This document shows positions 1,619 to 58,811 of a DNA stretch of 64,000 nt, in pieces (position 1 is the stretch's first letter; each line of letters opens with the position of its first letter). Both the position numbers and the translations under genes were made by a program. The notes beneath the pieces were generated by a model. The model saw nothing but the letters and a program-made list of their open reading frames with translations. It was not told the DNA's origin and ran no database searches. Origin of the DNA: Candidatus Omnitrophota bacterium (GTDB lineage: Bacteria; Omnitrophota; Omnitrophia; Omnitrophales; JACROU01); contig JAJDCD010000010.1 in NCBI GenBank assembly GCA_029261035.1, positions 142,612 through 206,611 of the forward strand. The letters are read 5' to 3'.

Positions 1619-1630
1619 TTTATTCCTTTG

Positions 1631-1666
1631 TCTATTAGCGTTTAGCGTAGAGCGTAGAGCGGATAG
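1631..1666. repeat. SD-abutting heptamer-repeat leader element upstream of sdhB (TCTATTAGCGTTTAGCGTAGAGCGTAGAGCGGATAG)
   Basis: Tandem NNTAGCG heptamers directly 5' of the SD (CCTTTGTCTATTAGCG... = mRNA ...CGCUAAUAGACAAAGG). The same unit is found at 4159-4196, 50005-50027 and 58812-58848. Confidence 0.65.
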
Positions 1667-1748
1667 AATCACCCACTCACCTTACCTTCTCCCGATCGGG
1701 GAGAGAAAAAAACAAAGGCTCACTCTTCACTAAATACGCGTAGCGTAT

Positions 1749-4147: not shown

Positions 4148-4158
4148 GAGGTCCTTTG

Positions 4159-4196
4159 TCTATTAGCGGATAGCGTTTAGCGTAGAGCGGATAGGA
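4159..4196. repeat. SD-abutting heptamer-repeat leader element upstream of sdhC (TCTATTAGCGGATAGCGTTTAGCGTAGAGCGGATAGG)
   Basis: Same element and the same position relative to the SD/start as at sdhB. Confidence 0.65.
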
Positions 4197-4232
4197 AAAC
4201 ACTATTCCTTTGTCATAAAAATACAAGAAAAT

Positions 4233-4337
4233 GTCATTGCGAGGTGTCATTCAAGGAGCCGTGGCAATCTCGGATGATGATTGTCACCATTACCCCTGAG
4301 ATTGCCGCAGCTCTTTTGTCACACACTTCGCAATGAC
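4233..4337. repeat. MITE-like nested palindromic element, family E, in the mdh-sdhC spacer
   Basis: GTCATTGCGAGG...GAGCCGTGGCAATCTCGG...CCTGAGATTGCCGCAGCTC...CTTCGCAATGAC. Confidence 0.65.
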
Positions 4338-4346
4338 AAGCACTTC

Positions 4347-5300: not shown

Positions 5301-5317
5301 AATATATCCTTTACCTA

Positions 5318-5435
5318 ATTAAAAGCTAAAAAGTCAAAAGTAAAAAACATAATTCAAAGCTCAAATCCAAATACTTATTTGGTCTTTAAATTTTTTAATT
5401 TTAAACTATAGCTTTTACTTTTTACTTTTAAATCT
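5318..5435. repeat. AT-rich MITE-like element family H in the icd-mdh spacer, core palindrome CCAAATActTATTTGG (5366-5381)
   Basis: Arms CTAAAAAGTCAAAAGTAAAAAAC / GCTTTTACTTTTTACTTTTAAA. Homologous to 30820-30925. Confidence 0.55.
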
Positions 5436-5443
5436 TTACTTCT

Positions 5444-6541: not shown

Positions 6542-6747
6542 CTTAAGTCTCCTAATTCTATAAATTTAAAAGTTTAAAGTGAAAATTCAAAAGCATAATT
6601 CAAAATTTAAATACTCTTGTTGAAAAACCTATTTCTTTACTCTATAGATTCATCTAAAATAGTGAATTCAATCTTAAGTAAGCAGTCTATAAAGCTATTC
6701 ACACAGATCAAGACCTTTGATCTTATCAAAAGGAGAGTCCCCTTTCA

Positions 6748-21140: not shown

Positions 21141-21196
21141 ATCGCTCACCCCCTATTCTTTACTTTTCTTTCCTACACAAAAAGATTAGCACTATA

Positions 21197-21211
21197 TTGA
21201 CACATTGTCAA
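21197..21211. promoter_or_regulatory. Perfect palindrome TTGACAcatTGTCAA. Shared -35 / operator of the divergent XRE and small-peptide promoters.
   Basis: A 6-3-6 inverted repeat that reads TTGACA on both strands. On the minus strand, 17 nt downstream lies TAATCT. A near-palindrome TGACATATAGTCA follows at 21249-21261. Confidence 0.5.
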
Positions 21212-21361
21212 AATAGCATAACTTTATAGGATTATATTCGTTTAAAATTGACATATAGTCATGTTTCTAGTTATACTTAGTTTAGAAGTGAAAAAACAGT
21301 GAAGTATCTGTAAGCCATTTATTTAAAAAGAGTTATATCTTATTTAGAAGAGAGAGAAATA

Positions 21362-21670
21362 ATGAATATTGGAAAACAAATCAGAGCAATTCGGCAGAAG
21401 AAGAGAATGACTCAAAAAAAACTAGCAGAACTCATTGGAAGAGAAGGCAGTTTTGTGAGTCATATTGAAAGAAACTCCCGGAATGTCTCTGTCAGACTCC
21501 TCAGCCAAATTGCACAAGCTCTAGAAACGGCCCCTATGGAATTTTTCATTACTGGAAAAGATGATTATGAGAAAAGTATAGAAAAGATGAGCACGCTCAA
21601 TGAAGAAAGCCTACATAAACTAAATGATTATATCGACTTTCTTCATCTCACTCAAAATAAAGAGAATTAA
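21362..21670 (+). CDS. XRE-family helix-turn-helix transcriptional regulator
   Basis: 102 aa. HTH region IRAIRQKKRMTQKKLAELIGREGSFVSHIERNSRNVSVRLLSQIAQAL. Confidence 0.8.
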   Translation: MNIGKQIRAIRQKKRMTQKKLAELIGREGSFVSHIERNSRNVSVRLLSQIAQALETAPMEFFITGKDDYEKSIEKMSTLNEESLHKLNDYIDFLHLTQNKEN

Positions 21671-21681
21671 TTTGAAGCTGA

Positions 21682-21778
21682 GTGACAGTCACATTGCTCT
21701 GCGTTTCACGCAGGCATTTGACAGTCACTTTAAAGTTGAGTGAAAAAAGGGTGACTGTCACTTTACGTGACTGTCACC
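21682..21778. repeat. Cluster of four GTGAC(A/T)GTCAC palindromes with an internal CTGCG...CGCAG hairpin (family P, copy 1)
   Basis: Copies at 21682, 21718 (degenerate TTGACAGTCAC), 21751 and 21768. The last copy lies inside the final codons of cysE (encodes ...GDSHVK). Confidence 0.7.
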
Positions 21779-22429
21779 CTTTTTTACCTTCTTCTTAGCC
21801 AACGCTTGCTCAATCACGTCAATTTCTTTTTGAAGAAAAACGATGCGTTCTCTCAGCTCTTCAACAGGATCTGGTAAATCACAATGATCTAGAGGCTCTA
21901 CTTTATTTCCATCACGACGCACAACTTCACCAGGCACTCCAACGACGGTGCAACTTTCTGGCACGGGATGAATCACAACAGAACCAGCACCTACTTTAGA
22001 GTGACTCCCAACAGTAATATTTCCCAAAACTTTAGCCCCAGCACCCACAACAACATTATCTCCTAATGTAGGATGCCGTTTCCCGCGATCTTTTCCAGTT
22101 CCACCTAAAGTAACTCCTTGATACAAGGTCACATCATTTCCAATCTCAGCCGTTTCCCCGATCACAACACCCATTCCATGATCGATAAAAAACCCGCTGC
22201 CAATCTTTGCTCCAGGATGAATCTCAACACCCGTTAAGAAACGAGCCATCTGAGAAATTAAACGTGGAATCACAGGAATCTTAATCACGTGAAGTAAGTG
22301 TGCCAATCGGTAATAAAGAATCGCGTGAAAACCCGAATTAGACAAAATTGCTTCAAGCCATCCGAACAGAGTCTTAGCCGCAGGGTCACGATCAAATATT
22401 GCTTTGTAATCTCTAAAAATTGCTTTCAT
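21758..22429 (-). CDS. cysE: Serine O-acetyltransferase
   Basis: 223 aa. N-terminal SATase helical domain plus hexapeptide repeats (GAKIGSGFFIDHGMGVVIGETAEIGNDVTLYQGVTLGG). Confidence 0.85.
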   Translation of the reverse strand: MKAIFRDYKAIFDRDPAAKTLFGWLEAILSNSGFHAILYYRLAHLLHVIKIPVIPRLISQMARFLTGVEIHPGAKIGSGFFIDHGMGVVIGETAEIGNDVTLYQGVTLGGTGKDRGKRHPTLGDNVVVGAGAKVLGNITVGSHSKVGAGSVVIHPVPESCTVVGVPGEVVRRDGNKVEPLDHCDLPDPVEELRERIVFLQKEIDVIEQALAKKKVKKGDSHVK

Positions 22430-22569: not shown

Positions 22570-25500
22570 TTACGCCGAAATAAGAATGCGAAGCTGTGCA
22601 TGTATCTCAGTAACCCATCGAGCCACCATATCATTCAAGAAACTATCCCGCATATGGAATATAGAATCAATTTGATCGAGCTTGTCTGGATGCGGATTCG
22701 TAATCGGTGTTGCTAAGAAATCAAGCCCAATATCAATAGCGGCAATTCTAGCAACCAAACGATTCTCATCTCGAACAGAGTCGAGACTGTTCCCTCGGAT
22801 TACTTGATCTGAAGAAATCTTTCGAACCCCTTTAACAAAAACACCTTCTAAGTCAACCGATGGCGCAACAACAACAACTTGTCCTTTAGGAAAACGTGCT
22901 GTTTGCATCGTAACAAAAAACTCAAGAGCTTCCGCAACTGTTTTACGACCCACTTTTTGAAAAGTGATAAATTTATTTTTTACTTCTGGATCCACTTTTA
23001 AGTTCTTAAGAACACTAAGAACTCTATCTTTTGTGCTATTATTTGGCACCAAGAAAGCAATATTCTTTTTGTTTGGGCCTCTTAATGCGAGCGCAACAGG
23101 AATTAAAGTTTCTTCTAACACCTTCTCTGAAACATCTCCCAAAGGAAGTACAAGTTGTCCAGGTAAGCTACTGGTACTTTTATTAAAAATTCGAAGAGCT
23201 GCTGCTTTTGCATCTAATGTAACTGGCGAAATTTCAATACTTGTTGGATCTAACAAAGCAGTTCCTGAAATAGTAACAGACGTTGTGATCGAATCGCCCA
23301 AGCTACTTGCGACAGCTAAATTTGTTTTCTTAGCAAACAAACTAACCAAACCCTGAATTTGTCTTTTAGCACTAGAATCCTCTATCTCAACCTCTTGTAT
23401 GGCATCTAAATGATATTGCGTAAATTTTGTAGGCGCTTTTGCCAACAAACTTCTAAGAGAAGTTAATAGATGTCGTAAATGTCCCACACTTCTAAAATTT
23501 TGCAATTCTGTAACAAGTCCATCTACTTTTGCTACTGTAATCTCTTCCGGAGCTAAAGTCTGCCTTGCAGAAGACCCTCTCTCTTTTTTATGACGATGAT
23601 CTCTAAGATGATCATTTCTCCGTCCTAAGCTATCGGCAGTAACCTCTTCTAAAATTTTTGCTACAGCTGATTTAGCTTGAGGAGTTACAAAAACTTGATT
23701 TACACCTAGGCTAGAAGCAGATAAAGGTTTCGCTGAAATAGGTGTAATATCTTCCTCTCCCACAAACATGGTAAAAAATCCGGAGTTTCTTAAACTTTCT
23801 TTTGCACCTGCCAACAACCTGTTTTCTCCACTTTCAATAAGTGGAATTCCTGCCTCTAACATTTGCTTTTTATTACGAGCAAGCAACATATTTCTTGCAT
23901 CCATAATCACAGGAACTTCAACTCTACGACCACCAATCACAACACTTTTAATAGGTTCCATTATTTGATGCGCTTCCACTAAATCTAAATTTTTTATTTC
24001 GTCCCAGTCCGTCATGAGCGCTATCAAGTTGCTTCCCTTAATTGCTTGTTTCATCGTTTTCGCAACTTCCACCTTATCGTCAAACTTAACAGTAATTAAA
24101 CGTTTCCATCCCTTTTTAACAATTCCTTCAATTTCTCTTTGGGTTAAATTTAAACTTACTGTATCAACATCCGCATCATATTTATCTTCACCCCTACTAC
24201 CAGACAAAACTTGATTCCGTACTTGTCGCAACAACCCTGATATATCTTTATCTAAAATACTCATATCTTCTTTTAAAATCTGGTACGTAAAATCAAATAC
24301 AAAGTTTTGTTGTGCTTCTTCTAAAGGATCATGAAAAGAAACCGTTGCTCCCAAATCCAATAACTCTCGGATCACAACCATCGAACGCGTTTCACGAACA
24401 TCGTCTGTATTCGCTTTAAATGCAAGTCCTAAAACACCAATACGAACACCCTCTAATGGGAGATCTGTATTTTCTGCTACATCTCCTATCGAAGCTAATG
24501 TGCTTTTGATTTTACCCACAACAACCATAGGTGCTCGTCCGTTTGTTGAAATCGCTTTCTCAGCAATTTTAAAATCAACTCCACTTTCTTTAGCACGATA
24601 AAGAGCTTCAGCGGTATCTTTAGGAAAACAAGAGCCTCCATACCCTGCTCCAGCAGCCAAAAATGCTGCATTAGGGTTACGAACATCATTTTTCATGATA
24701 CGAACTACTTCTTGATAAGAAGCTCCAACTTCTTCACTCAGCCAAGCAAGTGCATTTGCAAAAGAGATACTGATAGCCAACCAAACATTGGCCGAATATT
24801 TAATCATAGGCGAACTTTTACGGTCTGTCACAACTACAGGATGCTTGTGCCGTGCCTGCAAAGGAGCCCATAACTCTTGTAATTTTTTTGATGCGAATTC
24901 TGATTCCACACCAAATACATTTCTGTCTGGATTTAAAACATCGTGAACCGCACTCCCTTCTCTTAAGAACTCGGGATTACTTGCGATATCAAAATGGCTC
25001 CCTTCTTTAAGATCCATTTCAACTAGAACTTCTTTCATTTTATCGAACGCAATTGGAGGTACTGTTGACTTCACAACAATAACTTTCCTTCTAGGAGTTC
25101 TTCTGTCACTACTCCTTAGATTACTTTTAATACCCCAACCAGCAGTTCTTGTTGCTGAAAGTAAATAAGCTAAATTAGCTTCCCCTTTATTAGGTCCTTC
25201 TTTAATTTCTGGAGTTCCAACTGCAATATAAATAATATTAGCATCATGAATCGCTGCTTCAGCACCACTGCTATAGAACTCCGACTCTTCCAATGGAGAA
25301 TGTTGAAAGTGAAGTCGCCCATCATCACGATTCTTTTTTACCAATTCTTCTAATCCAGGCTCCCAAATAGGCAGCCTTACTTCGGGTTGATTAAGCCCTT
25401 CAATCTTATTTCTATCGATATCCAGAGTCGTAACATCATGACCCAAATCAGACAAAACAGTTCCTGTAATTAATCCCACATAACCCGTTCCGACCATAAC

Positions 25501-28500
25501 CACTTTTTTTCTATCTACAGCTGCAGGATCGTCAAATTTTATAACCTTGTCCATATTGGCTCTATCTTTAACCTTTTTAAAACTAGGACCAACAGAAGGA
25601 CGGCCTAAGCTAAGGTAGTTAATCCCTACATCTGCTACTTCCGTAAGAGAAACTTCCTGAGTTCCATCAGATTGGCGACCAAAAATATTACGCCCATCAA
25701 AAAGAGGCTTTAGTTTCAAAACTCTCTTCATCTTTTGTAACCCAATATTGCGAATCACATCATGATCCGCTGCAATCACCACTGCATTACTTTTTCGGAT
25801 AGCCTCTTCTGGAGAGTCTACAAACTCAAAAAAGTTTACGTTTAATCGACTTCTAATAATTTTATCCAACGATGTATCTTCTCTAGCTTCCGTAACCCAT
25901 TTCATAAACTCTTCTTGAACGTCAGGGTCATAGATATAAATTTTCTTAATTCCTTTAGCCGCTAACCACAACACTAAATCTTTAGCAGGGGAAGCTAGCA
26001 AACGCGCTCCATTTCCTTTAAAAGCAACTCCTAATAACGCCATCTTAATATCTGAAACTCTTTTTCCACTTATGGTCGACATATTTTGATCGATCATAGA
26101 TTTAAACCAATCAATTTGCGCATTATTAGAATCGCGCACCTCTGTAACACCATGAAATGCGAGTTGAGGTGGTAAAACATCATTTTCCCCAGCCCTTTCA
26201 TTTCGCTTAAATAACTCATCAAATTCCGAGGCCGCTCTTTCTAGAAAAGCTCTTAACTTTCCCCCAAAAGCAAAAGAAGGACTAATATTATGCAACCCCA
26301 CACGCCTATCCAAACCAGCACCAAACGCAACCATTCCCATATCTCCTTTTAACTTACGTACAACTTGTGCAATCGTATTAAAAGAAGCAAGCTTGGTACC
26401 CAAATAAGAGAGAATTCCCAAGTAGCCCAACTCCGCACTCGCAGAGTCCGTCACAACAAACATTTTTTCATCTAAGCCTTTCGGAAAAAGAAGCGCTTTC
26501 AAACTTTCCTTTGTGTTTTCTTGAGCTTGTTTCAAATTTCTAAATTTATCTGCATCATCTTCATCTACAATCGATTCCACCTTAGGAAATCCTAAAATCA
26601 ACTGCTGACTATTCATATCCTCGATTTGAGATCCTTTACGCAACAACTCTGGAGCGTACACAACCGTAAAATTATCATCCTCTCCACTAACATCATAAAT
26701 CGTCTGCATAATATTTTCTGTTCGTCCTGTAGGCATATGGCTTCGAACAATAAATGTTTTATGACTTCGATCTCCCAAAGCTCTGAGCCTCTTTAACGCT
26801 TCACCAAATCCTCTACTACGCTGATTGACAACTTTCTCAAATCGATCCGCATCTTTGTCTAAGAAAAGACCCGCATCAATCATAATGACATTATGTTCCT
26901 CTAAAACCATAATCTGTGCAATTTGATATTTCAACTCTTTAAGCTTTGCACCCGATCCTTGTAAAACAGATGAATAAAAAAGATCCTCTTTTATACTAAT
27001 TAATGTTGGAGTCACTTCTCCACTATGTCCAAAGAGCACTTTTTCTTGAATAAAATCTTTTATCCAAGTCAAATGCTTCTCAATCTGGATCATTCTTTGC
27101 GTAAGAACCTCGTCTACAGTCTGTTCTCCTAAGTCCAATTGCTGCAAACCTACTTTGTCATCTAATTTCTGTAGTTCTTTAACTTTTATTTTTTCTACAT
27201 TCAATTTCAACCTTAACCAATCCGAAACATCATCAATATTTATTTCTGTAATATCCGCATCTTTCTTTCCTTGTAAAATAACCTCAGATCTTCCTGGTTC
27301 ATGGTTCTTTGAATTTGCAGAATCCAAATTTCTCTGCGTATCATACCAATCAATCGAGATCTGACGCCCTGCATCTGTTGCTCTTTTAAGCAACACAGCA
27401 CTCGTCGTTACACCCACATCACCAACACCCCAAAAAGCAATTTTTTCTATTGGGGTTATTTCAGTAACCACCTGATCAGCACCCAAAGATGCCGCCGTAG
27501 AAACGGAAACATCCACCCAAAGACTAGACTGATTTGGGCCTAAAAATTGAACACGCAACTTATCGCCCTCTTGAGCCGTAACTTTTGCTGACGTTAAAGA
27601 CGATAAAGCTGTGCCATCAAAAGCTCGTCTTCGAAGAAGAGAGTTTGCTCGTCTTTCTAAGCCGCGTTGATAAGCTTTAGAATCTAATTGATAAGCAGAA
27701 GATACAGGTTCTGTAACCAAAGATCGAATTAACATGTGCCCTAAAGTTTCCGGAGCATCCAAAGAGTTCCTTGTTAATCGTGCTGCGATTGAAATTTTAT
27801 TTAATTCTGATTTAATAAATGCATCTGAATTAATTTGATCTTTTCCTAAAATTAAATTTAAATATTCATGCGCTTGCTCAGACAACTCTGCTTTTGGACG
27901 AATAGATAAGAAGGAAACATCTTCTTCTGTAAGTTTTTGCTGAATTCCACCACCATGAAAACCACCAGTAATAAGAACCGCCTTTGATTTACGTTCTTGC
28001 TTCAAGAAAGAAAGAGACTTTTGAATCATCGCACCTTCTCGCTCGCGAGCCACTTCATAAAAACGAAGCGCACGATCGAAAAACGAATCCTCCAATTGAG
28101 ACAAGAGAGAAACTCTATTTTCCATCTCTCTTTGAATCGTTTGGATCTTTTCCGTTAGTAAAGAAGGCTTCCAGTCAGAAGCTAAAGATTGAATTTTTTG
28201 AGCTTCATCACGACTTAATTCGAGCTTAAATAATTTTTCATAAAGATTAATAGTTTCATCTGCTTTGAAAATTTGTTTTTCCAACCGTGTTTCAAGAAGA
28301 GCTTCAGCAATGCTATTTTCCAAAGCACTTTTCTCCTGAAACAAATCAGACCCTACTAATTCTTTTTGATAAATAAGTTGACGAACCAAGGAGGGTAATA
28401 CCTTACTGCGATCTAATGAAAACTCATATTCTTCTGCAGCACTCCAAAGAAGCTCAAAATAACCTCTTGGATCTTGAAACAAAAGTAAATCACTTTGAGA

Positions 28501-29448
28501 GCTTGCATTCAATGAAGGAACTCCCTGTCTTAAGGAACTCCAATTTTCTGACAAAATCTTTTTAAACGGATTACTTTCTGGGATTTTAGTTAAAAGAAGA
28601 TGTTGAATGTATAACCATTCTTGAGCCCAAACCTTAAGATCAATATCCTTACTTTCTCTTTCAAGGGTAAATAGCTTACGAATATTCTTTAAATCAAGAG
28701 GCGAGGCTACATATTTCTGTTCCAGTTCATTTAAATGTCTTAAATAATTTAATAAGTGCAGTTTTCCATTTTCAAACTCGCTCTTTTTCTGATCCCATAC
28801 CCGTAAATCACCTAAATAAACTTTATCTTTTGCTTTTTGAATCTGGGTTTTCCACTGACCCACTGCCTTGAGCGCCTGTGGAGAGAATTTGTAAATTTCA
28901 CGAAAAAGCTTTAAATTTTCTTTGTATAACTCAGGGTTCTCCACCCCTAACACTTTAACTTTTGATTGTTTCTCAATAGCAAAAACTTCAGCCGCTGAAA
29001 ATTGTCCTTTTTTCATCCAACGATGAGCAGCACTTACATTCATTTTCGCATCAGGGAATAAGTTAAAAAGACTAGAATCAATAGAACTATCGGCCCCTTC
29101 AACAAAAACAACGTCAACACCTTCTGTTCGATAAAGGTAATCTAAAATTTGTTTAATTCTATTTTGCGTTCCTAAATGAGCATGCGCATCTTCCAAATGA
29201 TAAATTTTCATTCTTTCTTGCTTTGTTTGATAAGCATCAACAACAAAGCCTAATTCATTTGGGAAACCAAAAGAAGAAGACATGGACTGTTGTGTAACTG
29301 AAGGGGTGCTTACAAACACCTCGGCCCAAGCAGGATTAACTCCTGAAAAAATCATAAAAAATGCCAATGCTAAGGAAAGCATTTTCATAATCATCTTCTT
29401 TTTTAAAGTTTTTAATCTTCTTCGCATAAGTTTTTCTTCTTTCATCAA
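22570..29448 (-). CDS. Giant (2292 aa) signal-peptide protein with tandem UDP-glucose/GDP-mannose dehydrogenase-family modules (the first degenerate, the second intact) flanked by unknown domains
   Basis: N-terminus MMKEEKLMRRRLKTLKKKMIMKMLSLALAFFMIFSGVNPAWA|EV resembles a Sec signal. Residues about 1410-1850 form a complete UGDH (Rossmann KVVMVGTGYVGLITG, NPEFLREGSAV, catalytic GAGYGGSCFPKD, GLAFKANTDDVRETRS). Residues about 640-1400 form a divergent UGDH-like copy with the catalytic Cys replaced (IAFWGVGDVGVTT, YAPELLRKGSQ, SFAFGGKLRAF, LLGVAFKGNGARLL). Confidence 0.8.
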   Translation of the reverse strand: MMKEEKLMRRRLKTLKKKMIMKMLSLALAFFMIFSGVNPAWAEVFVSTPSVTQQSMSSSFGFPNELGFVVDAYQTKQERMKIYHLEDAHAHLGTQNRIKQILDYLYRTEGVDVVFVEGADSSIDSSLFNLFPDAKMNVSAAHRWMKKGQFSAAEVFAIEKQSKVKVLGVENPELYKENLKLFREIYKFSPQALKAVGQWKTQIQKAKDKVYLGDLRVWDQKKSEFENGKLHLLNYLRHLNELEQKYVASPLDLKNIRKLFTLERESKDIDLKVWAQEWLYIQHLLLTKIPESNPFKKILSENWSSLRQGVPSLNASSQSDLLLFQDPRGYFELLWSAAEEYEFSLDRSKVLPSLVRQLIYQKELVGSDLFQEKSALENSIAEALLETRLEKQIFKADETINLYEKLFKLELSRDEAQKIQSLASDWKPSLLTEKIQTIQREMENRVSLLSQLEDSFFDRALRFYEVAREREGAMIQKSLSFLKQERKSKAVLITGGFHGGGIQQKLTEEDVSFLSIRPKAELSEQAHEYLNLILGKDQINSDAFIKSELNKISIAARLTRNSLDAPETLGHMLIRSLVTEPVSSAYQLDSKAYQRGLERRANSLLRRRAFDGTALSSLTSAKVTAQEGDKLRVQFLGPNQSSLWVDVSVSTAASLGADQVVTEITPIEKIAFWGVGDVGVTTSAVLLKRATDAGRQISIDWYDTQRNLDSANSKNHEPGRSEVILQGKKDADITEINIDDVSDWLRLKLNVEKIKVKELQKLDDKVGLQQLDLGEQTVDEVLTQRMIQIEKHLTWIKDFIQEKVLFGHSGEVTPTLISIKEDLFYSSVLQGSGAKLKELKYQIAQIMVLEEHNVIMIDAGLFLDKDADRFEKVVNQRSRGFGEALKRLRALGDRSHKTFIVRSHMPTGRTENIMQTIYDVSGEDDNFTVVYAPELLRKGSQIEDMNSQQLILGFPKVESIVDEDDADKFRNLKQAQENTKESLKALLFPKGLDEKMFVVTDSASAELGYLGILSYLGTKLASFNTIAQVVRKLKGDMGMVAFGAGLDRRVGLHNISPSFAFGGKLRAFLERAASEFDELFKRNERAGENDVLPPQLAFHGVTEVRDSNNAQIDWFKSMIDQNMSTISGKRVSDIKMALLGVAFKGNGARLLASPAKDLVLWLAAKGIKKIYIYDPDVQEEFMKWVTEAREDTSLDKIIRSRLNVNFFEFVDSPEEAIRKSNAVVIAADHDVIRNIGLQKMKRVLKLKPLFDGRNIFGRQSDGTQEVSLTEVADVGINYLSLGRPSVGPSFKKVKDRANMDKVIKFDDPAAVDRKKVVMVGTGYVGLITGTVLSDLGHDVTTLDIDRNKIEGLNQPEVRLPIWEPGLEELVKKNRDDGRLHFQHSPLEESEFYSSGAEAAIHDANIIYIAVGTPEIKEGPNKGEANLAYLLSATRTAGWGIKSNLRSSDRRTPRRKVIVVKSTVPPIAFDKMKEVLVEMDLKEGSHFDIASNPEFLREGSAVHDVLNPDRNVFGVESEFASKKLQELWAPLQARHKHPVVVTDRKSSPMIKYSANVWLAISISFANALAWLSEEVGASYQEVVRIMKNDVRNPNAAFLAAGAGYGGSCFPKDTAEALYRAKESGVDFKIAEKAISTNGRAPMVVVGKIKSTLASIGDVAENTDLPLEGVRIGVLGLAFKANTDDVRETRSMVVIRELLDLGATVSFHDPLEEAQQNFVFDFTYQILKEDMSILDKDISGLLRQVRNQVLSGSRGEDKYDADVDTVSLNLTQREIEGIVKKGWKRLITVKFDDKVEVAKTMKQAIKGSNLIALMTDWDEIKNLDLVEAHQIMEPIKSVVIGGRRVEVPVIMDARNMLLARNKKQMLEAGIPLIESGENRLLAGAKESLRNSGFFTMFVGEEDITPISAKPLSASSLGVNQVFVTPQAKSAVAKILEEVTADSLGRRNDHLRDHRHKKERGSSARQTLAPEEITVAKVDGLVTELQNFRSVGHLRHLLTSLRSLLAKAPTKFTQYHLDAIQEVEIEDSSAKRQIQGLVSLFAKKTNLAVASSLGDSITTSVTISGTALLDPTSIEISPVTLDAKAAALRIFNKSTSSLPGQLVLPLGDVSEKVLEETLIPVALALRGPNKKNIAFLVPNNSTKDRVLSVLKNLKVDPEVKNKFITFQKVGRKTVAEALEFFVTMQTARFPKGQVVVVAPSVDLEGVFVKGVRKISSDQVIRGNSLDSVRDENRLVARIAAIDIGLDFLATPITNPHPDKLDQIDSIFHMRDSFLNDMVARWVTEIHAQLRILISA

Positions 29449-30792: not shown

Positions 30793-30819
30793 AGAAATCT
30801 CCTTATCAAAATTTAAAAA

Positions 30820-30925
30820 TAAAAAGTATAAAGTAAAAACTATGGACACATCCAAATATTTGGATGTGTTTATTTTTAAATTTTAAATTATGGTTTTTAA
30901 TTTTTACTTTAAAATTTTGAATCTC
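30820..30925. repeat. AT-rich MITE-like element (family H) with central perfect palindrome ACACATCCAAATATTTGGATGTGT (30846-30869)
   Basis: Arms AAAAGTATAAAGTAAAAAC / GTTTTTAATTTTTACTTT around the core. Homologous to the element at 5318-5435. Probably also acts as the terminator of the upstream ychF paralog. Confidence 0.6.
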
Positions 30926-32020
30926 TCACACATTAAATCTAAAGTGAACAACATCCCCATCTTGAATTTCGTAATCTTTTCCTTCTACTTTAAAACAACC
31001 GTTTTCCCTAGCTTTTTGAAGAGATCCCGAATCAATTAAATCCTGACACTTTACAACCTCTACCCGAATGAAGCCTCTTTCCATATCGGAGTGCACATGC
31101 CCCGCAGCCTGAGGAGCCTTCGTTTCTTTAGGAACGGTCCAAGCCCGAACTTCACCATGGTCATGGGTAAAGAAAGTAACCTTATCCAAAAGTTCATAAC
31201 CCATATGCACCACTTTAGCAGGCCCTGATTTTTCAAGTAAAAACTCTTCTATAATTTCTTCCTTTTTCTCCGCATCTTCCATTCGGGACATCTCTTCTTC
31301 AAGAATGCCACATAGATATACAATTCGAGACATATCCTCCTCAGAAAAAGCATTTAACTCTTTTTCCCACTTCCCTCCGCCCGGCAAATCATCTTGGCTT
31401 ACATTAACGCAATATAAATAAGGTTTGATTGTAAATAACTGAATATCTTTTAAGGAGTGTACTTGTTCATGCGTAAGATCCAAATGTCGAATCGGATGAC
31501 CACTTTCCAAAGCATCTTTTAATCCATGCAACAAATCAAAAAGATCTTCATCAAATTTTCCTGAAGCTTTCTTTGCTTCGAGCTTGGCAATGCGTCGCCC
31601 AACGGTTTCACTGTCTTTATGAATCAGTTCATTATTTACGATCCGAATATCGCGCATGGGATCAATGGAACCTAAAAAGTGAACGGCATCTTCACTGTCA
31701 AAAATTCGAACTACATGAAGTAATACATCTACATCTCTAAGGTGAGAAAGAAATTGGTTCCCCATTCCCTCTCCTTTAGAAGCTCCTTCTACCAAACCCG
31801 CCACATCCAAAAATTCCAAATGGGCCCGAACTACGTGTTTCGGATCAATAATCTTAACGATTTTTTCCAGCCGCTCATCCGGGACAGGAACAACCCCTTT
31901 TTTAGGTTGAATCGTAGAAAAAGGAGCAATTGAGATTTCCTCTTTTCCATTAGCTAAAGTATTAAAAATCGTGGTCTTACCTACATTAGGCAACCCCACA
32001 ATTCCACAACGAAAACCCAT
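30926..32020 (-). CDS. Second, divergent YchF-family GTPase paralog
   Basis: MGFRCGIVGLPNVGKTTIFN, FSTIQP (instead of FCTIEPN), DVAGLVEGAS, and a C-terminal TGS-like domain. SD GAGGAG lies upstream. Confidence 0.8.
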   Translation of the reverse strand: MGFRCGIVGLPNVGKTTIFNTLANGKEEISIAPFSTIQPKKGVVPVPDERLEKIVKIIDPKHVVRAHLEFLDVAGLVEGASKGEGMGNQFLSHLRDVDVLLHVVRIFDSEDAVHFLGSIDPMRDIRIVNNELIHKDSETVGRRIAKLEAKKASGKFDEDLFDLLHGLKDALESGHPIRHLDLTHEQVHSLKDIQLFTIKPYLYCVNVSQDDLPGGGKWEKELNAFSEEDMSRIVYLCGILEEEMSRMEDAEKKEEIIEEFLLEKSGPAKVVHMGYELLDKVTFFTHDHGEVRAWTVPKETKAPQAAGHVHSDMERGFIRVEVVKCQDLIDSGSLQKARENGCFKVEGKDYEIQDGDVVHFRFNV

Positions 32021-40699: not shown

Positions 40700-40710
40700 G
40701 TGACAGTCAC
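40700..40710. repeat. Isolated GTGACAGTCAC palindrome abutting the mutS stop codon
   Basis: Single copy of the family P core in the mutL-mutS spacer. Confidence 0.5.
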
Positions 40711-43223
40711 TACTCAGCAAAAAGAGGCAACTCTTCCCCTTGCTCTTTCTTCATCTTTCGAACCTTGGGTCTCTGTTTCGCACCCTTTGATGAATCATCG
40801 TCCTTTTCTAACTCTTCTAATATTTCATGCGCTCTAGAAATCACTTCTTCCGGCAAGCCGGCAAGTTTTGCTACATGAATCCCATAACTCTTATCGGTTC
40901 CGCCCCGTACAATTTTTCTCAAGAAAGAAATTCCATTTTCTCCTTCATGAACAGTTACATTATAATTTTTAACTCCAGGAAACAAATCCTCGAGTTGAGT
41001 TAATTCATGATAATGCGTAGCAAATAAAGCTCTAGGTCGTGGCCCACCTTCCTTAGCTAGGTATTCACAAACACTCCAAGCGATACTAACACCATCATAG
41101 GTTGAGGTGCCTCTCCCAATTTCATCCATCACAATAAGACTTCGAGAAGTTGCGTTATTCAATATGTTTGCCGTCTCAATCATCTCAACCATAAACGTAC
41201 TTTCTCCTCGAGTCAAAAAGTCGGAAGCTCCAATTCGTGTAAAAATACGATCGCAAATTCCAAGCTGTGCTTTTTTAGCTGGAACAAAACAGCCTACCTG
41301 TGCCAATAGTGAAATAAGAGCTACTTGACGAATATAAGTCGACTTACCCGCCATATTAGGCCCGGTAATTAAAATCAGTTGAAAATCTTCTCCGTTAAGT
41401 AAAATGTCATTTTCCACAAACTCTCCACTGGGAAGAACCATTTCCACCACAGGATGACGCCCCGCATCTACTTGAATCGATGTTTCTTCTGACATCTCAG
41501 GGCGAACATAATCTCTTCTGACAGCAACTTCCGAAAAAGCACTGACCACATCTACAAAAGCAATAGCTTCAGCCGATTGCTGCAATGCATCAATTTGCTC
41601 TCGGACCTGATTGCGAAAAGTTTCAAAAATTTCATATTCTTTCGCATTCGCCTTATCGGTTGCATTAAGAACTTTTTCTTCATACTCTTTCAATTCAGGA
41701 ACGATAAAACGCTCTGCATTAACTAATGTTTGCTTACGGATATACTCTGGCGGCACAGCATCTAAATTAGTTTTTCTTATTTCTATATAATAACCAAACA
41801 CCCTGTTGTACCTGATTTTTAACGATTTAATCCCCGTTCTCTCAATCTCTCTTTTTTGAAGTTCTGCAATATAGTCTTTTCCATGTTCTGAAATATTTCT
41901 TAGTTCATCCAGCTCGGAGTTATATCCAACCTGAATCAAGCCGCCTTCTTTAATCGTAATTGGAGGTTGTTCTACAAATGCTTTTTCTAGAGAATCTACT
42001 AAGCTTAGAAAATCATTTAACGAGCCGTTCACTTTTTGAAAAACAGAAAATTCCGTTTTCTTCAGCATCTCCTTCAAAGCAGGAATTTTAGATAACGATA
42101 CTTTTAACGCAACCAAATCTCTCGCATTGCCTAGATCACAGTTCAAACGTGCCACAATACGCTCGATGTCTCTAATTTCAGACAAACCTTCTCTCAATTG
42201 GTCTCGAACAGCCGTTGAATCAACCAATTCTTGAACACAACCCAAACGTTGATTAATTTTTTCTAAATTCAATAGAGGCCGTTTCAACCATAAACGAAGC
42301 ATACGTCCTCCCATAGGAGTTAAAGTCTCATCCACGGAGCTCAATAGCGTAGGCGCCTTTTTATCCCCTGTCATCGACTTGACGATCTCTAAGTTTCTTT
42401 GAGTCATTGAATCTAGAACCATATACTCTTCAGAAGAATATGCAGAAGGTTTCTTAACATGTTCTAAACTTTTATGAAGGTGGTCTTGTAAGTAATAAAG
42501 AATTCCCCCAACAGCAATCGTTGCTAAAGAAAAGTCTTTAAGCCCCATCCCTTCAATCGAAGCCACTTGAAATACGCTCTGAATTCGATCTTTAGAGCGA
42601 TCTAAATCAAAAATTCGATCTTCATAATGATTGTTCGAACAATTAAATTCTGTTTGTAAAAATTGAAATAATTCAGACTCAAACGAAATGCTTTCTGGCA
42701 AAATACTTTCGACGGGCTGTATACGCATCAATTCGCTTTTTAAATTAGATAAGCTATCTACCTCGGTAACTTTAAACTCCCCTGTCCCTAAATCTAAAAA
42801 AGCAACTCCATAAGAACCCTCTTTGTCGGGGAAACATGAAACTAAATATTTGTTAGAGACAACTTCTCCTTCAGACTCTTCAACGTAAGTCCCTTGACTA
42901 ATAATTCGAGTCACTTCTCGCTTAACCAACCCCTTCGACGCTCGAGGGTCTCCGACTTGCTCACAAATAGCCACCTTCAGTCCTGCTTCAATTAATTTGG
43001 CGATATAGCCTTTTCCAGCATGAAAAGGAACTCCGCACATAGGAATTCTTCCTTGCTCCCCTCCCTCACGCCCTGTTAAGGTAATATTTAAAATTCGAGA
43101 AGCAAGCGCTGCATCTTCAAAAAACATTTCATAGAAATCCCCTAGTCGAAAAAATAGAATCGTATTGGAAGGTAAAGCCTTTTTAATATCCAAATACTGC
43201 TGCATCATGGGGGTGAGTTTCAC
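40710..43223 (-). CDS. mutS: DNA mismatch repair protein MutS
   Basis: 837 aa. Mismatch-binding N-terminus (GDFYEMFFEDA), Walker A GPNMAGKSTYIRQ, and the MutS signature TGRGTSTYDG. Confidence 0.9.
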   Translation of the reverse strand: MKLTPMMQQYLDIKKALPSNTILFFRLGDFYEMFFEDAALASRILNITLTGREGGEQGRIPMCGVPFHAGKGYIAKLIEAGLKVAICEQVGDPRASKGLVKREVTRIISQGTYVEESEGEVVSNKYLVSCFPDKEGSYGVAFLDLGTGEFKVTEVDSLSNLKSELMRIQPVESILPESISFESELFQFLQTEFNCSNNHYEDRIFDLDRSKDRIQSVFQVASIEGMGLKDFSLATIAVGGILYYLQDHLHKSLEHVKKPSAYSSEEYMVLDSMTQRNLEIVKSMTGDKKAPTLLSSVDETLTPMGGRMLRLWLKRPLLNLEKINQRLGCVQELVDSTAVRDQLREGLSEIRDIERIVARLNCDLGNARDLVALKVSLSKIPALKEMLKKTEFSVFQKVNGSLNDFLSLVDSLEKAFVEQPPITIKEGGLIQVGYNSELDELRNISEHGKDYIAELQKREIERTGIKSLKIRYNRVFGYYIEIRKTNLDAVPPEYIRKQTLVNAERFIVPELKEYEEKVLNATDKANAKEYEIFETFRNQVREQIDALQQSAEAIAFVDVVSAFSEVAVRRDYVRPEMSEETSIQVDAGRHPVVEMVLPSGEFVENDILLNGEDFQLILITGPNMAGKSTYIRQVALISLLAQVGCFVPAKKAQLGICDRIFTRIGASDFLTRGESTFMVEMIETANILNNATSRSLIVMDEIGRGTSTYDGVSIAWSVCEYLAKEGGPRPRALFATHYHELTQLEDLFPGVKNYNVTVHEGENGISFLRKIVRGGTDKSYGIHVAKLAGLPEEVISRAHEILEELEKDDDSSKGAKQRPKVRKMKKEQGEELPLFAE

Positions 43224-43309
43224 GAATAATCTCCTTCTTTGGTAGGTACAGACCGGTTATTATGCTGACACCCTAAAAGAGTGTCAAGGGTTAATGCGTA
43301 TAGAGAGAT

Positions 43310-43346
43310 AACCCTCACCCCAACCCTCACCCTATCAGGGAGAGGG
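43310..43346. repeat. Small palindromic repeat (family G: CCCTCACCCCAACCCTCACCCTATCAGGGAGAGGGAG)
   Basis: Hairpin CCCTCACCC / AGGGAGAGGG. Related copies at 50027-50066 and 58855-58880. Confidence 0.55.
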
Positions 43347-44246: not shown

Positions 44247-44318
44247 GTCTTTTTGCTCGTGAGGCATGAAGCGTATTTCGTGGAAATTCTACCCGAAAAA
44301 AACATCCTTCAAACACCT

Positions 44319-44421
44319 GTCATTGCGAGGTGTAAACAAAAAGAGCCGTGGCAATCTCAGGTTTAAAGAATTATCTCTGTCTGAGATTGCCACGGCTCTT
44401 TTGCTCTTGCCTCGCAATGAC
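44319..44421. repeat. MITE-like nested palindromic element (family E: terminal inverted repeats GTCATTGCGAGG / CCTCGCAATGAC, inner GAGCCGTGGCAATCTCAG / GAGATTGCCACGGCTC)
   Basis: Seen in sequence. Same family at 4233-4337, 52286-52395, 57467-57573 and a truncated copy at 56385-56424. Confidence 0.7.
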
Positions 44422-44425
44422 AATT

Positions 44426-45688
44426 TTATCTCTTTCCTACAATCAAAATAGAATTTTTTCCGCCGAAACCAAAAGAATTTTTCATAATCGTTTTAATCTC
44501 TGCAGGACGAGATTTATTAGGCACGTAATCCAGATCACAGTCAGGGTCCGGAACTTCATAATTAATCGTTGGCGGCAAAATTTGTTTTTCCATCGCTAGC
44601 AACGTTGCTGCCAATTCCACACTTCCAGCTGCTCCAATCAAATGACCCACCATAGATTTCGTAGAACTCACTGGGGTGTGATAAGCTTCTTCTCCAAACA
44701 CTTTTCGAATGACAGCTGTTTCTGTTTTATCATTCAAAGGGGTCGATGTTCCATGCGCATTAATATAGTCAATATCCTTTGGAGTCACTTCCGCTTCTTC
44801 TAACGCCATCTCCATCGCACGAGCCGCTTGCTCTAATGAAGGGTCTGGCGCTGTCATATGATGCGCGTCACAAGTCATCCCATGACCTAACACTTCCGCA
44901 TAAATATGTGCCCCTCTAGCTTTTGCATGTTCATATTCTTCTAAGACAAACATAGCGGATCCTTCTCCTAAAACAAATCCATCTCGGTCCATATTAAAAG
45001 GACGCGATGCTTTAGTCGGATCATCATTGCGGGTGGACATAGCGCGAGCAACACAAAAAGAAGCAAAAATAGGCGAGTACATTGTTGCCTCACTTCCCCC
45101 TGTCAAAATAACATCTTGGTGATTCAACTCAATAGCCTCAACCGCAGCGCCTAAAGCATCCGAAGCAGAAGAACAAGCTGTAGACAAAGCGTAACTCGGA
45201 CCTTTGAGCCCCAAGAACATAGAAACTTGGCTTGCACAAGCATCTGGAAAAGAAGCTAAAGCAGTAAAAGGACTAATTCTCATAGGACCTGAATCGATAA
45301 AAACATCATGTTGTTCTAGTATATAACCAATGCCACACATCGAAGTCCCAATAACAACTCCAGCCCTCTCAGGGGGCACTTGGGATAAATCAATTTTAGA
45401 ATCTTCAACGGCCATAGAGGAAGTCGCAATAGCAAAATGAGCAGTTCGATCCATACGTCGAACCAAACGCTTATGAAGATATTTCTCGGGGTCAAAATCT
45501 CTTACTTGTCCTGCCATCTGTGTTGGAAAGGGAGTTCTGTCAAAACGATCAATCGTTGTAACGCCCGATTTTCCACTTTCTATAGCATCCCAAAATACAT
45601 CTTTCCCAATTCCATTAGCTGCAATAACACCTAATCCTGTAATAACAACCCGTCGTTTTTTTGACATAGTTTCCTTTGCCCACTGCAA
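44426..45688 (-). CDS. fabF: 3-oxoacyl-ACP synthase II
   Basis: 420 aa. KAS II fold with active-site Cys context (ALSTACSSASDALG) and His-His (HGTSTPLND, GHLIGAAG). Confidence 0.9.
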   Translation of the reverse strand: MQWAKETMSKKRRVVITGLGVIAANGIGKDVFWDAIESGKSGVTTIDRFDRTPFPTQMAGQVRDFDPEKYLHKRLVRRMDRTAHFAIATSSMAVEDSKIDLSQVPPERAGVVIGTSMCGIGYILEQHDVFIDSGPMRISPFTALASFPDACASQVSMFLGLKGPSYALSTACSSASDALGAAVEAIELNHQDVILTGGSEATMYSPIFASFCVARAMSTRNDDPTKASRPFNMDRDGFVLGEGSAMFVLEEYEHAKARGAHIYAEVLGHGMTCDAHHMTAPDPSLEQAARAMEMALEEAEVTPKDIDYINAHGTSTPLNDKTETAVIRKVFGEEAYHTPVSSTKSMVGHLIGAAGSVELAATLLAMEKQILPPTINYEVPDPDCDLDYVPNKSRPAEIKTIMKNSFGFGGKNSILIVGKR

Positions 45689-49989: not shown

Positions 49990-50004
49990 GATTCTTCCTT
50001 TTTT

Positions 50005-50066
50005 AATAGTGTTTAGCGTAGAGCGTTTAACCCTCACCCCAGCCCTCTCCCTGTTAGGTAGAGGAA
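50005..50066. repeat. Heptamer-repeat leader (AATAGTGTTTAGCGTAGAGCG) fused to a family G palindromic repeat, between the E1 gene stop and the SufS-like start
   Basis: TTTTTTAATAGTGTTTAGCGTAGAGCGTTTAACCCTCACCCCAGCCCTCTCCCTGTTAGGTAGAGG. Immediately 5' of SD AAGGAAG of the desulfurase. Confidence 0.6.
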
Positions 50067-52254: not shown

Positions 52255-52285
52255 TTTTCCTTATTTAACAAAATAACATTTTTTC

Positions 52286-52395
52286 GTCATTGCGAGGCGT
52301 TCAACAAAAAGAGTCGCGGCAATCTCAGGAAGAAGAGAAAATCTTATTTAGTCCGAGATTGCTTCGGCTCGTTCTACTTAAGGCCTCGCAATGAC
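52286..52395. repeat. MITE-like nested palindromic element, family E
   Basis: GTCATTGCGAGGCG ... GAGTCGCGGCAATCTCAG ... GAGATTGCTTCGGCTC ... CCTCGCAATGAC. Confidence 0.65.
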
Positions 52396-52400
52396 GAACT

Positions 52401-53471
52401 CTAACAAATGGAGAACATTTTTTCTAACGCGGCAATGGAATCTTTTTTAACTTCATCTTTAACAAATACTTCATTCACATTACCCAAATGATCTAAAGTG
52501 AAAAGTAAATTCTTTAGATTAATCTTAAACATATTAGGGCACAAAGAACGATCTAGTTCGATAATCTTCTTATCTGGATTTCGAATAGCGGTATTTCTTA
52601 CATGGTTAATTTCCGTGCCAATAATAATGGTGGCTCCCGGCTCGGCCTGAGCTACAAAATCATTAATAAACTTGGTGCTTCCTGCATAATCCGCTTCACG
52701 AACTACAGGCTCTGGACACTCAGGATGAACAACGATCGAAGCCTCTGGATAACGTTGTCTCATATCTTGAACCATTTTTGGAGTAAAGTGCGTATGCACA
52801 TGGCAAAAACCTTTCCATAACAAAACAGTGGAATCTTTAATTTTCTCTACAGACAGACCTCCGTTTTCTTGGTATGGATCAAAAATATTTAATTTCTCTC
52901 GAGGCACACCTAACTTCAAAGCAGTGTTATGAGCTAAATGTTGATCGGGCATAAAAAAGATTTTCTTACCTTGATTGAAATAATGAGTAAAGACCTTGTC
53001 ACAGTTAGAAGAAGTAACCGTGGTCCCCCCATATTTTCCGCAGAGTGCTTTAATTAAAACGGTAGAATTAATATAAGCAACCGGAACAATATTTTCTTCA
53101 CCCACAATCTTAGACACTTCTTCCCATGCTGTTTCCGCTTGATCAATTTCCGCAAAATCAGACAACGGGCATCCTGCTAAATGATTGGGTAAATATACTT
53201 TTTGATTCTCACTTGCCAACACTCGACTTGTTTGAGCCATAAAATGAACACCGCAAAATACAATATGTTTCGCATCCTTATTCTCTTTACCCTTTTGGGC
53301 CATAGCAAGAGAATCTCCTGTAAAATCAGCCAACTCCGTAATCTCATAACGCTGATAGTTATGAGCTAGAATGAGCAGATCTTTTCCAAGCTCTTTTTTA
53401 TGCGCTTTAATTCGCTCAATAGCTTCTTCATCGGTTAAGTTTTGAATATCTTCATTTACAAGAGTAACCAC
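52401..53471 (-). CDS. nadA: Quinolinate synthase
   Basis: 356 aa. NadA motifs (ILAHNYQ, VFCGVHFMAQT, C113/C200/C297-type Cys: LAGCPL, GFCHVH, SLCPNM). GTG start after AGGAGG. Confidence 0.85.
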   Translation of the reverse strand: MVTLVNEDIQNLTDEEAIERIKAHKKELGKDLLILAHNYQRYEITELADFTGDSLAMAQKGKENKDAKHIVFCGVHFMAQTSRVLASENQKVYLPNHLAGCPLSDFAEIDQAETAWEEVSKIVGEENIVPVAYINSTVLIKALCGKYGGTTVTSSNCDKVFTHYFNQGKKIFFMPDQHLAHNTALKLGVPREKLNIFDPYQENGGLSVEKIKDSTVLLWKGFCHVHTHFTPKMVQDMRQRYPEASIVVHPECPEPVVREADYAGSTKFINDFVAQAEPGATIIIGTEINHVRNTAIRNPDKKIIELDRSLCPNMFKINLKNLLFTLDHLGNVNEVFVKDEVKKDSIAALEKMFSIC

Positions 53472-53497
53472 AATTTCCTCCTACACGGGAATGAAGG

Positions 53498-53596
53498 TGA
53501 CTGTCACTTAAAGTGACTGTCACCGAGCTAAACTTCATCACAACTTCACAAGTGACAGTCACTTTGCTCTGCTTCTGCAGGCAAGTGACAGTCACT
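53498..53596. repeat. Cluster of four GTGAC(A/T)GTCAC palindromes with internal CTGC...GCAG hairpin (family P, copy 2). Fills the thiC-nadA spacer.
   Basis: Copies at 53498, 53513, 53552 and 53586. Internal sequence TTTGCTCTGCTTCTGCAGGCAAGTGACAGTCAC parallels the 21693-21728 copy. Confidence 0.7.
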
Positions 53597-53599
53597 AAT

Positions 53600-54976
<1,377 letters not shown>

Positions 54977-56384: not shown

Positions 56385-56424
56385 GTCATTGCGAGACAAT
56401 TGAAAATTAAGTCGTGGCAATGAC
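56385..56424. repeat. Truncated family E element (GTCATTGCGAG...GTCGTGGCAATGAC)
   Basis: Shares the TIR and inner-arm sequence of family E. Confidence 0.5.
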
Positions 56425-56432
56425 AAAACCAT

Positions 56433-57430: not shown

Positions 57431-57610
57431 GATCCTTCGCTTCGCTCAGAATGACAACCTTCTAGAGTCATTGCAAGGTAAAAGCAAAAGGAGCCGTGGC
57501 AATCTCAGATGCTTGAAATCACTCCTTTTTCCCGAGATTGCCGCGGCTCACTTTTTAGACACCTCGCAATGACATTATTTTGCTTGTCATCCTGAGTGAA
57601 GCGAAGGATC
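57431..57610. repeat. Composite nested repeat: a family E element (57467-57573) bracketed by inverted family F arms (GATCCTTCGCTTCGCTCAGAATGACA ... TGTCATCCTGAGTGAAGCGAAGGATC)
   Basis: Seen in sequence in the iscA-iscS spacer. The 26-bp arms are reverse complements. Confidence 0.65.
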
Positions 57611-58800: not shown

Positions 58801-58811
58801 GGCATTCCTTT

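Follow-up and report, generated by a model that had tools for sequence, protein, structure and literature searches.

What are the short palindromes of the form GTGAC(W)GTCAC that cluster at the ends of several genes in the 64-kb window analysed here (the window being the whole stretch of Omnitrophota DNA under study)? The initial annotation offered two answers, operator arrays for the XRE regulator encoded beside one of the clusters, or a mobile palindromic element able to insert in frame. The exact pattern GTGACNGTCAC, which defines family P, occurs eight times in the window against 0.02 copies expected from dinucleotide shuffles (0 of 100 shuffles reached eight), and because copies of the 11-mer with two mismatches are present at chance level, the family is sharply defined. 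The exact sites start at 21682, 21751 and 21767 (cluster E1, extending over 21682-21777), at 53497, 53513, 53552 and 53585 (cluster E2, 53497-53595) and at 40700, and form two clusters of about 97 nt plus a lone copy, all at gene ends. The earlier description of two elements of roughly 100 bp with four perfect palindromes each holds for E2, but E1 has three perfect copies and a mismatched one, TTGACAGTCAC, at 21718. The parts of the family in the window are the following.

21682 to 21728: E1 REP-a, with arms GTGACAGTCAC (21682-21692) and a degenerate TTGACAGTCAC (21718-21728); both strands fold, z about -7.5
21729 to 21742: spacer between the two hairpins of E1; a similar AAGTTG.GTGA spacer occurs in E2 on the opposite strand
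21743 to 21785: E1 REP-b with its private outer stem, AAAAAAGG + GTGACTGTCAC + TTTAC + GTGACTGTCAC + CCTTTTTT
21758 to 21778, minus strand: last six codons of cysE (GDSHVK) and its TGA stop, encoded by E1 REP-b
40700 to 40710: lone GTGACAGTCAC, partner arm not detectable, local fold not significant (z -1.3)
53497 to 53523: E2 REP-b, GTGACTGTCAC TTAAA GTGACTGTCAC
53524 to 53551: E2 spacer
53552 to 53595: E2 REP-a, GTGACAGTCAC (53552-53562) + TTTGCTCTGCTTCTGCAGGCAA (53563-53584) + GTGACAGTCAC (53585-53595)

Alignments in both orientations showed that E1 and E2 are built from the same two modules in swapped order, and the extended similarity between them that had been quoted earlier is real. The internal hairpins noticed at the outset are also present, as CTGCG/CGCAG at 21699-21713 in E1 and as CTGC/GCAG at 53570-53581 in E2; the 25-nt 'loop' of E1 REP-a contains the inner hairpin GC-CTGCG/CGCAG-GC (21696-21715), and TTTGCTCTGCTTCTGCAGGCAA is its counterpart as the inner hairpin of E2 REP-a. 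This REP-a loop of 22-25 nt, itself a small hairpin, was seen only in the genome of the window. In E1 REP-b the two GTGACTGTCAC arms occupy 21751-21761 and 21767-21777, with TTTAC at 21762-21766 between them. The lone copy at 40700-40710 is probably a remnant half-REP.

The basic unit of the family is not the 11-mer itself but a hairpin of about 27 nt, in which two GTGAC(W)GTCAC 11-mers form the arms around a loop of 4-7 nt; its 27-nt core has an 11-bp stem with one central mismatch. In the low-GC lineage of the window this unit reads (A-rich)G GTGACTGTCAC TTTAY GTGACTGTCAC C(T-rich). Each of E1 and E2 is a doublet whose two units face opposite ways, resembling REPIN or BIME elements, and the relative described below has both module orders (that of E1 in L137 and L150, that of E2 in L147 and L152); seven doublets and nine singlets were counted in the window lineage. 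Either strand of E1 folds into a pair of strong hairpins (z about -7.5), the whole of E2 into one long compound hairpin (z -7.6), and the fold of E1 REP-b reaches -26.9 and -26.7 kcal/mol (z -7.9 and -8.7) with an A6GG/CCT6 outer stem.

The composition of the arms and flanks fits these folds. Among the matches listed, 79 of 102 pairs of arms have complementary centre bases, where 50 would be expected, and the complementary pairs include G..C and C..G variants, as fits a base-paired stem; in the Omnitrophota hairpins the centre is a constant T.T (or A.A) mismatch. Outside the arms each copy has a private outer stem: complementarity between a copy's own flanks averages 5.9 bp, compared with 0.97 bp in a control that paired flanks across different copies, and is 5 bp or longer in 67% of the copies (3% in the control). 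Where a gene ends in a hairpin, its last 8-13 bases recur as their reverse complement in the downstream flank.

These flanks also bear on whether family P could be a Correia-like MITE, derived from an element with a DDE transposase and having terminal inverted repeats, a direct target-site duplication and an IS transposase acting in trans. Palindromic doublets of about 100 nt that are intergenic and able to overlap gene ends would suit such an origin. However, direct target-site duplications, raised by the initial annotation as a mark of element boundaries, were not detected, the flanks being inverted complements that differ from copy to copy instead of direct repeats, and the combination of terminal inverted repeats with a direct duplication was not found. 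In addition, single 27-nt hairpins are as frequent as doublets, a DDE transposase was not found beside any copy, and the sole gene recurrently linked to the hairpins encodes a Y1/HUH protein of the RAYT type, described below. A MITE of this kind is accordingly a very improbable source of the family.

E1 sits between the convergent genes XRE (21362-21670, plus strand) and cysE (21758-22429, minus strand). Immediately upstream of cysE, and sharing its strand, is an ORF of 2292 aa (22570-29448, minus strand). E2 takes up the region that separates thiC (53600-54967, minus strand) from nadA (52401-53471, minus strand), 4 nt past the thiC stop (53600-53602) and 25 nt ahead of the nadA GTG start; that it occupies the whole spacer had been recognized before, but the distance to the nadA SD, given then as 20 nt, is 13 nt to the AGGAGG. 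The lone copy at the mutS stop was confirmed, sharing 1 nt with the TAG (40710-40712), and the mutL start is 129 nt downstream.

The cysE ORF ends in ...KKGDSHVK*, and as had been proposed, its C-terminus is recoded by E1, with GDSHVK and the TGA stop deriving from both palindromes and the loop at 21751-21777; the tails of the orthologs, which were to be compared with it, are Lys-rich, variable and unlike that of the window. The same GDSHVK* terminates three unrelated genes (cysE in the window and two genes of a relative, in L137 and L163), and VTVT* terminates two (in L150 and L155). On the GGTGACAGTCACGTAAAGTGA strand of the hairpin all three frames close within 21 nt, and on the other strand two of three do. 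Because the GGTGACAGTCACGTAAAGTGA strand closes every frame, a copy that falls on the last codons of a gene costs only a short new tail.

Turning to the RNA, the stem of E1 REP-b is followed by U6 on both strands, between XRE on the plus strand and cysE on the minus strand, so that it has the shape, as judged by shape only, of an intrinsic terminator, in which a transcription unit closes with a G+C-containing stem-loop leading directly into a U tract. From this shape E1 REP-b is predicted to be a bidirectional intrinsic terminator for both genes. A consensus terminator scanner did not call REP-b, which we attribute to the central T.T mismatch. Over the 23 units compared, each of positions +3 to +8 in the 3' flank is T in 14-21 units, and the sequence on the 5' side is A-rich; copies of P would act, to judge by this architecture, as RNA 3'-end hairpins in this genome. 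In E2 REP-b there is no U tract on the transcribed minus strand ahead of the nadA SD, and E2 is more likely a putative intercistronic hairpin allowing incomplete termination before nadA. REPs in E. coli operons act as intercistronic hairpins.

The closest accessible relative is represented by the JGI contig Ga0315338_1000003 (2.17 Mb), whose cysE and nadA are 82% and 78% identical to those of the window; the best named matches of both genes are from Omnitrophota. With the strict pattern this contig has at least 11 hairpin loci over its 2.17 Mb, and a metagenome scan for two 11-mers with TTNNN between them returned 55 loci, including at least 11 on this contig and two on Ga0315338_1000074. The positional bias that the initial annotation had proposed to look for was evident in 194 kb of DNA from the lineage (87% coding by a crude ORF call), where 47 sites fall into 17 clusters, none lying more than 25 nt inside an ORF. 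Spacers between divergent genes contain no P cluster in the window lineage, and in spacers between co-directional genes the cluster is nearer the upstream stop in 10 of 12 cases; this is the extragenic location of REPs, downstream of genes and between co-directional or convergent ORFs.

At the orthologous sites the family turns over. In the 20-kb cysE-XRE locus of the relative (L120) there is no P with zero or one mismatch, and the spacer holds a GTCATTGCGAG-type repeat; two further loci that keep the cysE-XRE pair (L180 and L182) have no exact P anywhere in the retrieved locus and other repeats in the spacer. The thiC-nadA spacer likewise lacks P in relatives, holding a different repeat in L183 and being only 27 nt long in L184. 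Since relatives lack P at the orthologous spacers, P is lineage-specific at both window sites; the closest relative has its copies elsewhere.

Several other repeats were observed near these loci. A second family, of inverted pairs GTCATTGCGAG...GCCGTGGCAATCTCAG, fills other spacers of the window and, in relatives, stands in place of P in the cysE-XRE and thiC-nadA spacers; TAGCGTTTAGCGTAGAGCG units and AACCCTCACCC...GGGAGAGGG hairpins often adjoin each other. Their positions are given below.

Window 4219-4338, 44318-44435, 52283-52398, 56385-56426 and 57467-57574; L120:10690-10800; L183:3940-3990: GTCATTGCGAG...GCCGTGGCAATCTCAG family
Window 1624-1666, 4152-4194, 49995-50037 and 58806-58848: TAGCGTTTAGCGTAGAGCG-type tandem-like units
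Window 1683-1707, 43309-43346, 50028-50065 and 58855-58879: AACCCTCACCC...GGGAGAGGG hairpins
Window 5317-5441, 6563-6612 and 30810-30926: AT-rich repeats of about 50 nt, direct and inverted (families D3, D13, I3 and I7)

In L120 (10806-10842), the relative's XRE gene has its stop codon within a hairpin loop; this hairpin, AAAGGGGAATATC-TTTTACGT-GATATTCCCCTTTTT, resembles E1 REP-b in its outer stem and loop, by homology or by coincidence.

The distribution of the family also permits weighing whether the copies are ordinary intrinsic terminators, immobile and alike through convergence or locus-wise descent. Their A-tract, stem and T-tract architecture and their location at gene ends agree with this explanation, but 17 unrelated loci within a single lineage share an identical 27-nt core and differ only in the outer stem, the core is missing from the orthologous sites of relatives, and the same arms are found beside RAYT genes in other phyla. 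Furthermore, E2 and L147 lie inside apparent operons without a U tract. It is hence very unlikely that terminator function by itself explains the family.

Outside the lineage, contigs were scanned across phyla with the pattern P, a gap of 2-32 nt and P, and among the matches listed the paired 11-mers occur in numerous Chloroflexota, where the spacer is mostly 7 nt, and also in Omnitrophota, Bacteroidota, Ignavibacteriota and Sphingomonadales. A scan of viral contigs gave only 5 hits, which makes a phage origin unlikely. In Rfam nothing reached the gathering score, generic hairpin matches appearing only below threshold, and a literature search for the 11-mers retrieved primers and shRNAs only and no paper quoting the sequence of family P. 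In Anaerolineae/Chloroflexota (L007, L008, L009, L012, L032, L060, L066 and L112) P-N7-P is often placed 10-30 nt ahead of an SD and start codon, a position that, among the matches listed, contrasts with the preference of the Omnitrophota copies for gene ends. The 11-mer also occurs, among the matches listed, in tandem arrays similar to BIMEs, its copies separated by regular spacers of 12-32 nt, at L002:5673-5770, L004:1908-3001 and L082:7586-7830, on contigs of Chloroflexota, Bacteroidota and Sphingomonadales.

The first proposal of the initial annotation was that the clusters are operator arrays, each 11-bp palindrome binding a dimeric regulator such as the adjacent XRE protein and the clusters controlling their neighbours. 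The 11-mers are indeed perfect palindromes of a size bound by HTH dimers, the XRE gene adjoins E1, and the paired motif of Anaerolineae is often found, among the matches listed, 10-30 nt upstream of a start codon. The XRE promoter (window 21195-21265; L120 11230-11305, minus strand) contains two TTGACA-N3-(T/A)GTCA palindromes. One of these overlaps a good -35/-10 pair, both are conserved in L120, and they are likely the regulator's own operators. The TGACA/TGTCA half-sites pointed out earlier as common to the promoter and to P are present in both, but the TTGACA-N3-TGTCAA spacing and the outer bases differ from those of P.

The relatives speak against the operator proposal, given that L120 keeps both XRE and the TTGACA-N3-TGTCAA palindromes without any P (zero or one mismatch) in 20 kb, and the XRE orthologues of L180 and L182 are likewise retained with no exact P in the locus. 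The P clusters lie at gene 3' ends and not at promoters, copies are present at many unrelated loci, and the motif tracks RAYT genes and not a regulator gene; the arrays are neither conserved with the regulator nor placed as operators of promoters would be. Moreover, pairing of the centre bases between arms and the private outer stems fit a hairpin and not independent dimer sites. We consider it extremely unlikely that family P consists of operators.

What the hairpins do track is a gene. ORFs starting beside a hairpin were clustered without prior bias, and among the matches listed a single recurrent neighbour emerged, a protein of about 205 aa found on three unrelated contigs; the same clustering yielded no other recurrent neighbour gene. 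This protein matches Pfam Y1_Tnp with E-values down to 7e-12 and NCBIfam REP_Tyr_transpos with E-values of 1e-19 to 3e-21, the scores of 69-76 bits being under the curated cutoff of 80. A profile of 23 RAYT proteins had as its best solved match 4ER8, the E. coli TnpA-REP (E=1.7e-15), with IS200/IS605 TnpA at about 0.009; phmmer with a single RAYT against PDB found nothing.

P hairpins are present on both sides of RAYT in nine contigs (L002, L016, L062, L142, L149, L177, L178, L179 and L185), from Omnitrophota and Chloroflexota, two of which (L062 and L142) were added by tblastn. Four of them (L177, L178, L179 and L185) are 20-kb loci that were retrieved through the protein alone, and in each of them one P hairpin precedes RAYT by 25-45 nt and another P lies at the 3' end of RAYT. 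The TGA stop of RAYT lies inside the 3' P in three of these four loci, and in L178 RAYT ends in TAA 12 nt before P. In L177, L178 and L179 every exact P is within about 450 nt of RAYT, and in L185 the remaining two copies belong to a duplicated segment (comM-3'/REP) some 2.1 kb distant. This arrangement of P hairpins flanking RAYT is the layout of a REPtron (PMC3733652, PMC5581495, PMC6006769) and argues that family P is REP/REPIN-like.

A homologue search retrieved 111 RAYT relatives, the named ones all from Omnitrophota and mostly with one contig per protein. In six Omnitrophota loci, from lineages 55-75% identical, RAYT is located downstream of comM, which indicates vertical inheritance as a single copy. 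Four loci (L016, L149, L177 and L185) have the order comM, P hairpin, an 88-aa ORF (orf88), P hairpin, RAYT and P. Insertions of DNA with serine recombinases or AbiEi have broken up or duplicated comM in L178, L179 and L185. The RAYTs of Omnitrophota and Chloroflexota are only about 22% identical, yet they are associated with the same P arm sequence.

Instead of a domesticated RAYT, the linked protein could be the ordinary transposase of an insertion sequence, with the hairpins as remnants derived from IS200/IS605 ends (PATE-like). Its match to Pfam Y1_Tnp and the NCBIfam RAYT scores of 69-76 bits, below the cutoff of 80, leave room for this, and the ends of IS200/IS605 elements are subterminal hairpins whose insertion makes no duplications. 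On the other hand, the match to the TnpA-REP structure 4ER8 is about 13 orders of magnitude better than to IS200/IS605 TnpA structures, there is mostly one contig per protein, and the place downstream of comM is fixed in Omnitrophota lineages of 55-75% identity. No tnpB accompanies RAYT in the Omnitrophota loci, and the short repeats far outnumber the RAYT gene. We therefore regard an origin from IS200/IS605 ends as improbable.

The features above are those of REPs in most respects. The unit is a repeated imperfect palindrome of 20-40 nt that forms a stem-loop; the same repeats flank a single-copy RAYT, as established for the family in nine contigs other than that of the window; and E1 and E2 are doublets of inverted units of the REPIN kind, corresponding to HH and TT dimers, both of which have been described for REPs (PMC3733652). 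The feature that is missing is an unpaired GTAG (GT[AG]G) tag, the flanks in the window and its relatives being an A-run-G and a C-T-run, and CTAC, which is GTAG on the other strand, lies beside P at only two of five RAYT 3' flanks; REPtrons without GT[AG]G are on record (PMC6006769). Taken together, family P is quite likely a family of REP-type repeats (repetitive extragenic palindromes), and the second proposal of the initial annotation, a mobile palindromic element able to sit in frame, is supported in kind, as a REP/REPIN tied to RAYT, but not in its likeness to Correia elements as a TIR-type MITE.

Compared with the REP/BIME/REPIN and RAYT (TnpA-REP) systems of Proteobacteria, family P is alike in its hairpins of 20-40 nt and in its singlets and HH/TT doublets (PMC3116915, PMC3733652, PMC5581495, PMC3479197). 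As in E. coli, Pseudomonas and Stenotrophomonas, the repeats are extragenic and lie downstream of genes, between co-directional or convergent ORFs, with an occasional overlap of a coding end and a presence that differs between related genomes, and as in proteobacterial REPtrons a single-copy Y1/HUH transposase gene lies between the same repeats. Family P differs from these REPs in lacking the GTAG or GT[AG]G tag (in the window), in having arms that are each palindromic, in the fixed central T.T mismatch (in Omnitrophota) and copy-specific outer stems, in the RAYT stop codon inside the repeat and in one arm sequence extending across Omnitrophota and Chloroflexota. Its copy number is also much lower; in E. 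coli or Pseudomonas, REPs typically number in the hundreds. A REPtron-like layout with repeats that lack a GT[AG]G consensus has also been described for TnpA-Y1 classes 2.6 and 3 (Quentin et al. 2018, PMC6006769), but those atypical REP-like repeats have weaker secondary structure or a CnGA foot, whereas P is very stable and footless.

Two groups of repeats outside the REPs share some of these traits. Like the RPE of Rickettsia and the Correia elements of Neisseria, family P consists of palindromic repeats in or at gene ends that can change how a protein terminates. Correia elements also affect transcript ends, and they are marked by terminal inverted repeats together with a TA duplication. 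RPE are 100-150 nt long, lie within genes, have a CGTC tag and no dedicated transposase, and are classed as a CGTC-tagged REP (PMC3733652). Family P has neither the terminal inverted repeats, the TA duplication nor the CGTC tag of these elements, and is linked to RAYT. With the inverted pairs of DNA uptake sequences in Neisseria and Haemophilus it has in common a fixed short sequence that, inverted, makes a terminator stem at gene ends. Such pairs form terminators; uptake sequences are found about once every kb, inside genes too, whereas P is rare, strictly extragenic and RAYT-linked. Uptake sequences were ruled out as an identity for P, the density of which is too low, and so was a tyrosine-recombinase core site, which the 11-7-11 layout could recall, on account of the many copies per genome and the variable loop length.

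How copies would arise can be sketched from what is known of RAYT and IS200/IS605 enzymes: a Y1/HUH enzyme would cut and rejoin the single-stranded hairpin, giving new copies of P. For such mobility, the lack of P at orthologous sites of relatives is indirect evidence. In the window, however, no RAYT gene is present in the 64 kb, the relative L151 has none downstream of comM, its site in other Omnitrophota, and none of the 111 RAYT homologues was placed on the window's contig or on the contigs of the relative. Because RAYT is absent from the window and was not found in the closest relatives, the copies in the window may be orphans that have lost their mobility; genomes that keep REPs without a RAYT gene are known (PMC6006769). 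A palindromic repeat, GTCATCCCGGACYTGATCCGGGAT, was observed in the low-GC relative at L151:10940-11110 and L183:5075-5165, in L151 downstream of comM, where RAYT is located elsewhere.

The known RAYT mechanism leaves the private outer stems unexplained. We tentatively suggest, as a possibility that we hold to be rather doubtful, that P is a REP type of unusual age or mobility, with a palindrome-extending step during insertion or maintenance, and that it serves as a portable 'stop and terminate' module. The age or mobility is suggested by 11-mer arms that are identical across Omnitrophota, Chloroflexota and other phyla despite an identity of only about 22% between the flanked RAYTs. The extending step might be an inverted target duplication or an outward growth by template switching, and we know of no description of either in REP/RAYT systems. 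The portable role is proposed because the hairpin combines stops in five of six frames with the shape of a terminator.

Work on REP/RAYT systems has, to our knowledge, dealt almost exclusively with Proteobacteria, and family P would provide a clearly defined REP family, together with its REPtron, in the uncultivated phylum Omnitrophota, with the same hairpin being used by distant RAYTs in Chloroflexota. For annotation, P clusters are best labelled as repeats or terminators, and the tail of cysE should be read as derived from the repeat and not as a conserved part of the enzyme. The recurrent endings GDSHVK* and VTVT* document how one repeat has repeatedly rewritten protein C-termini, and the copy-specific outer stems may inform how such hairpins insert or grow.
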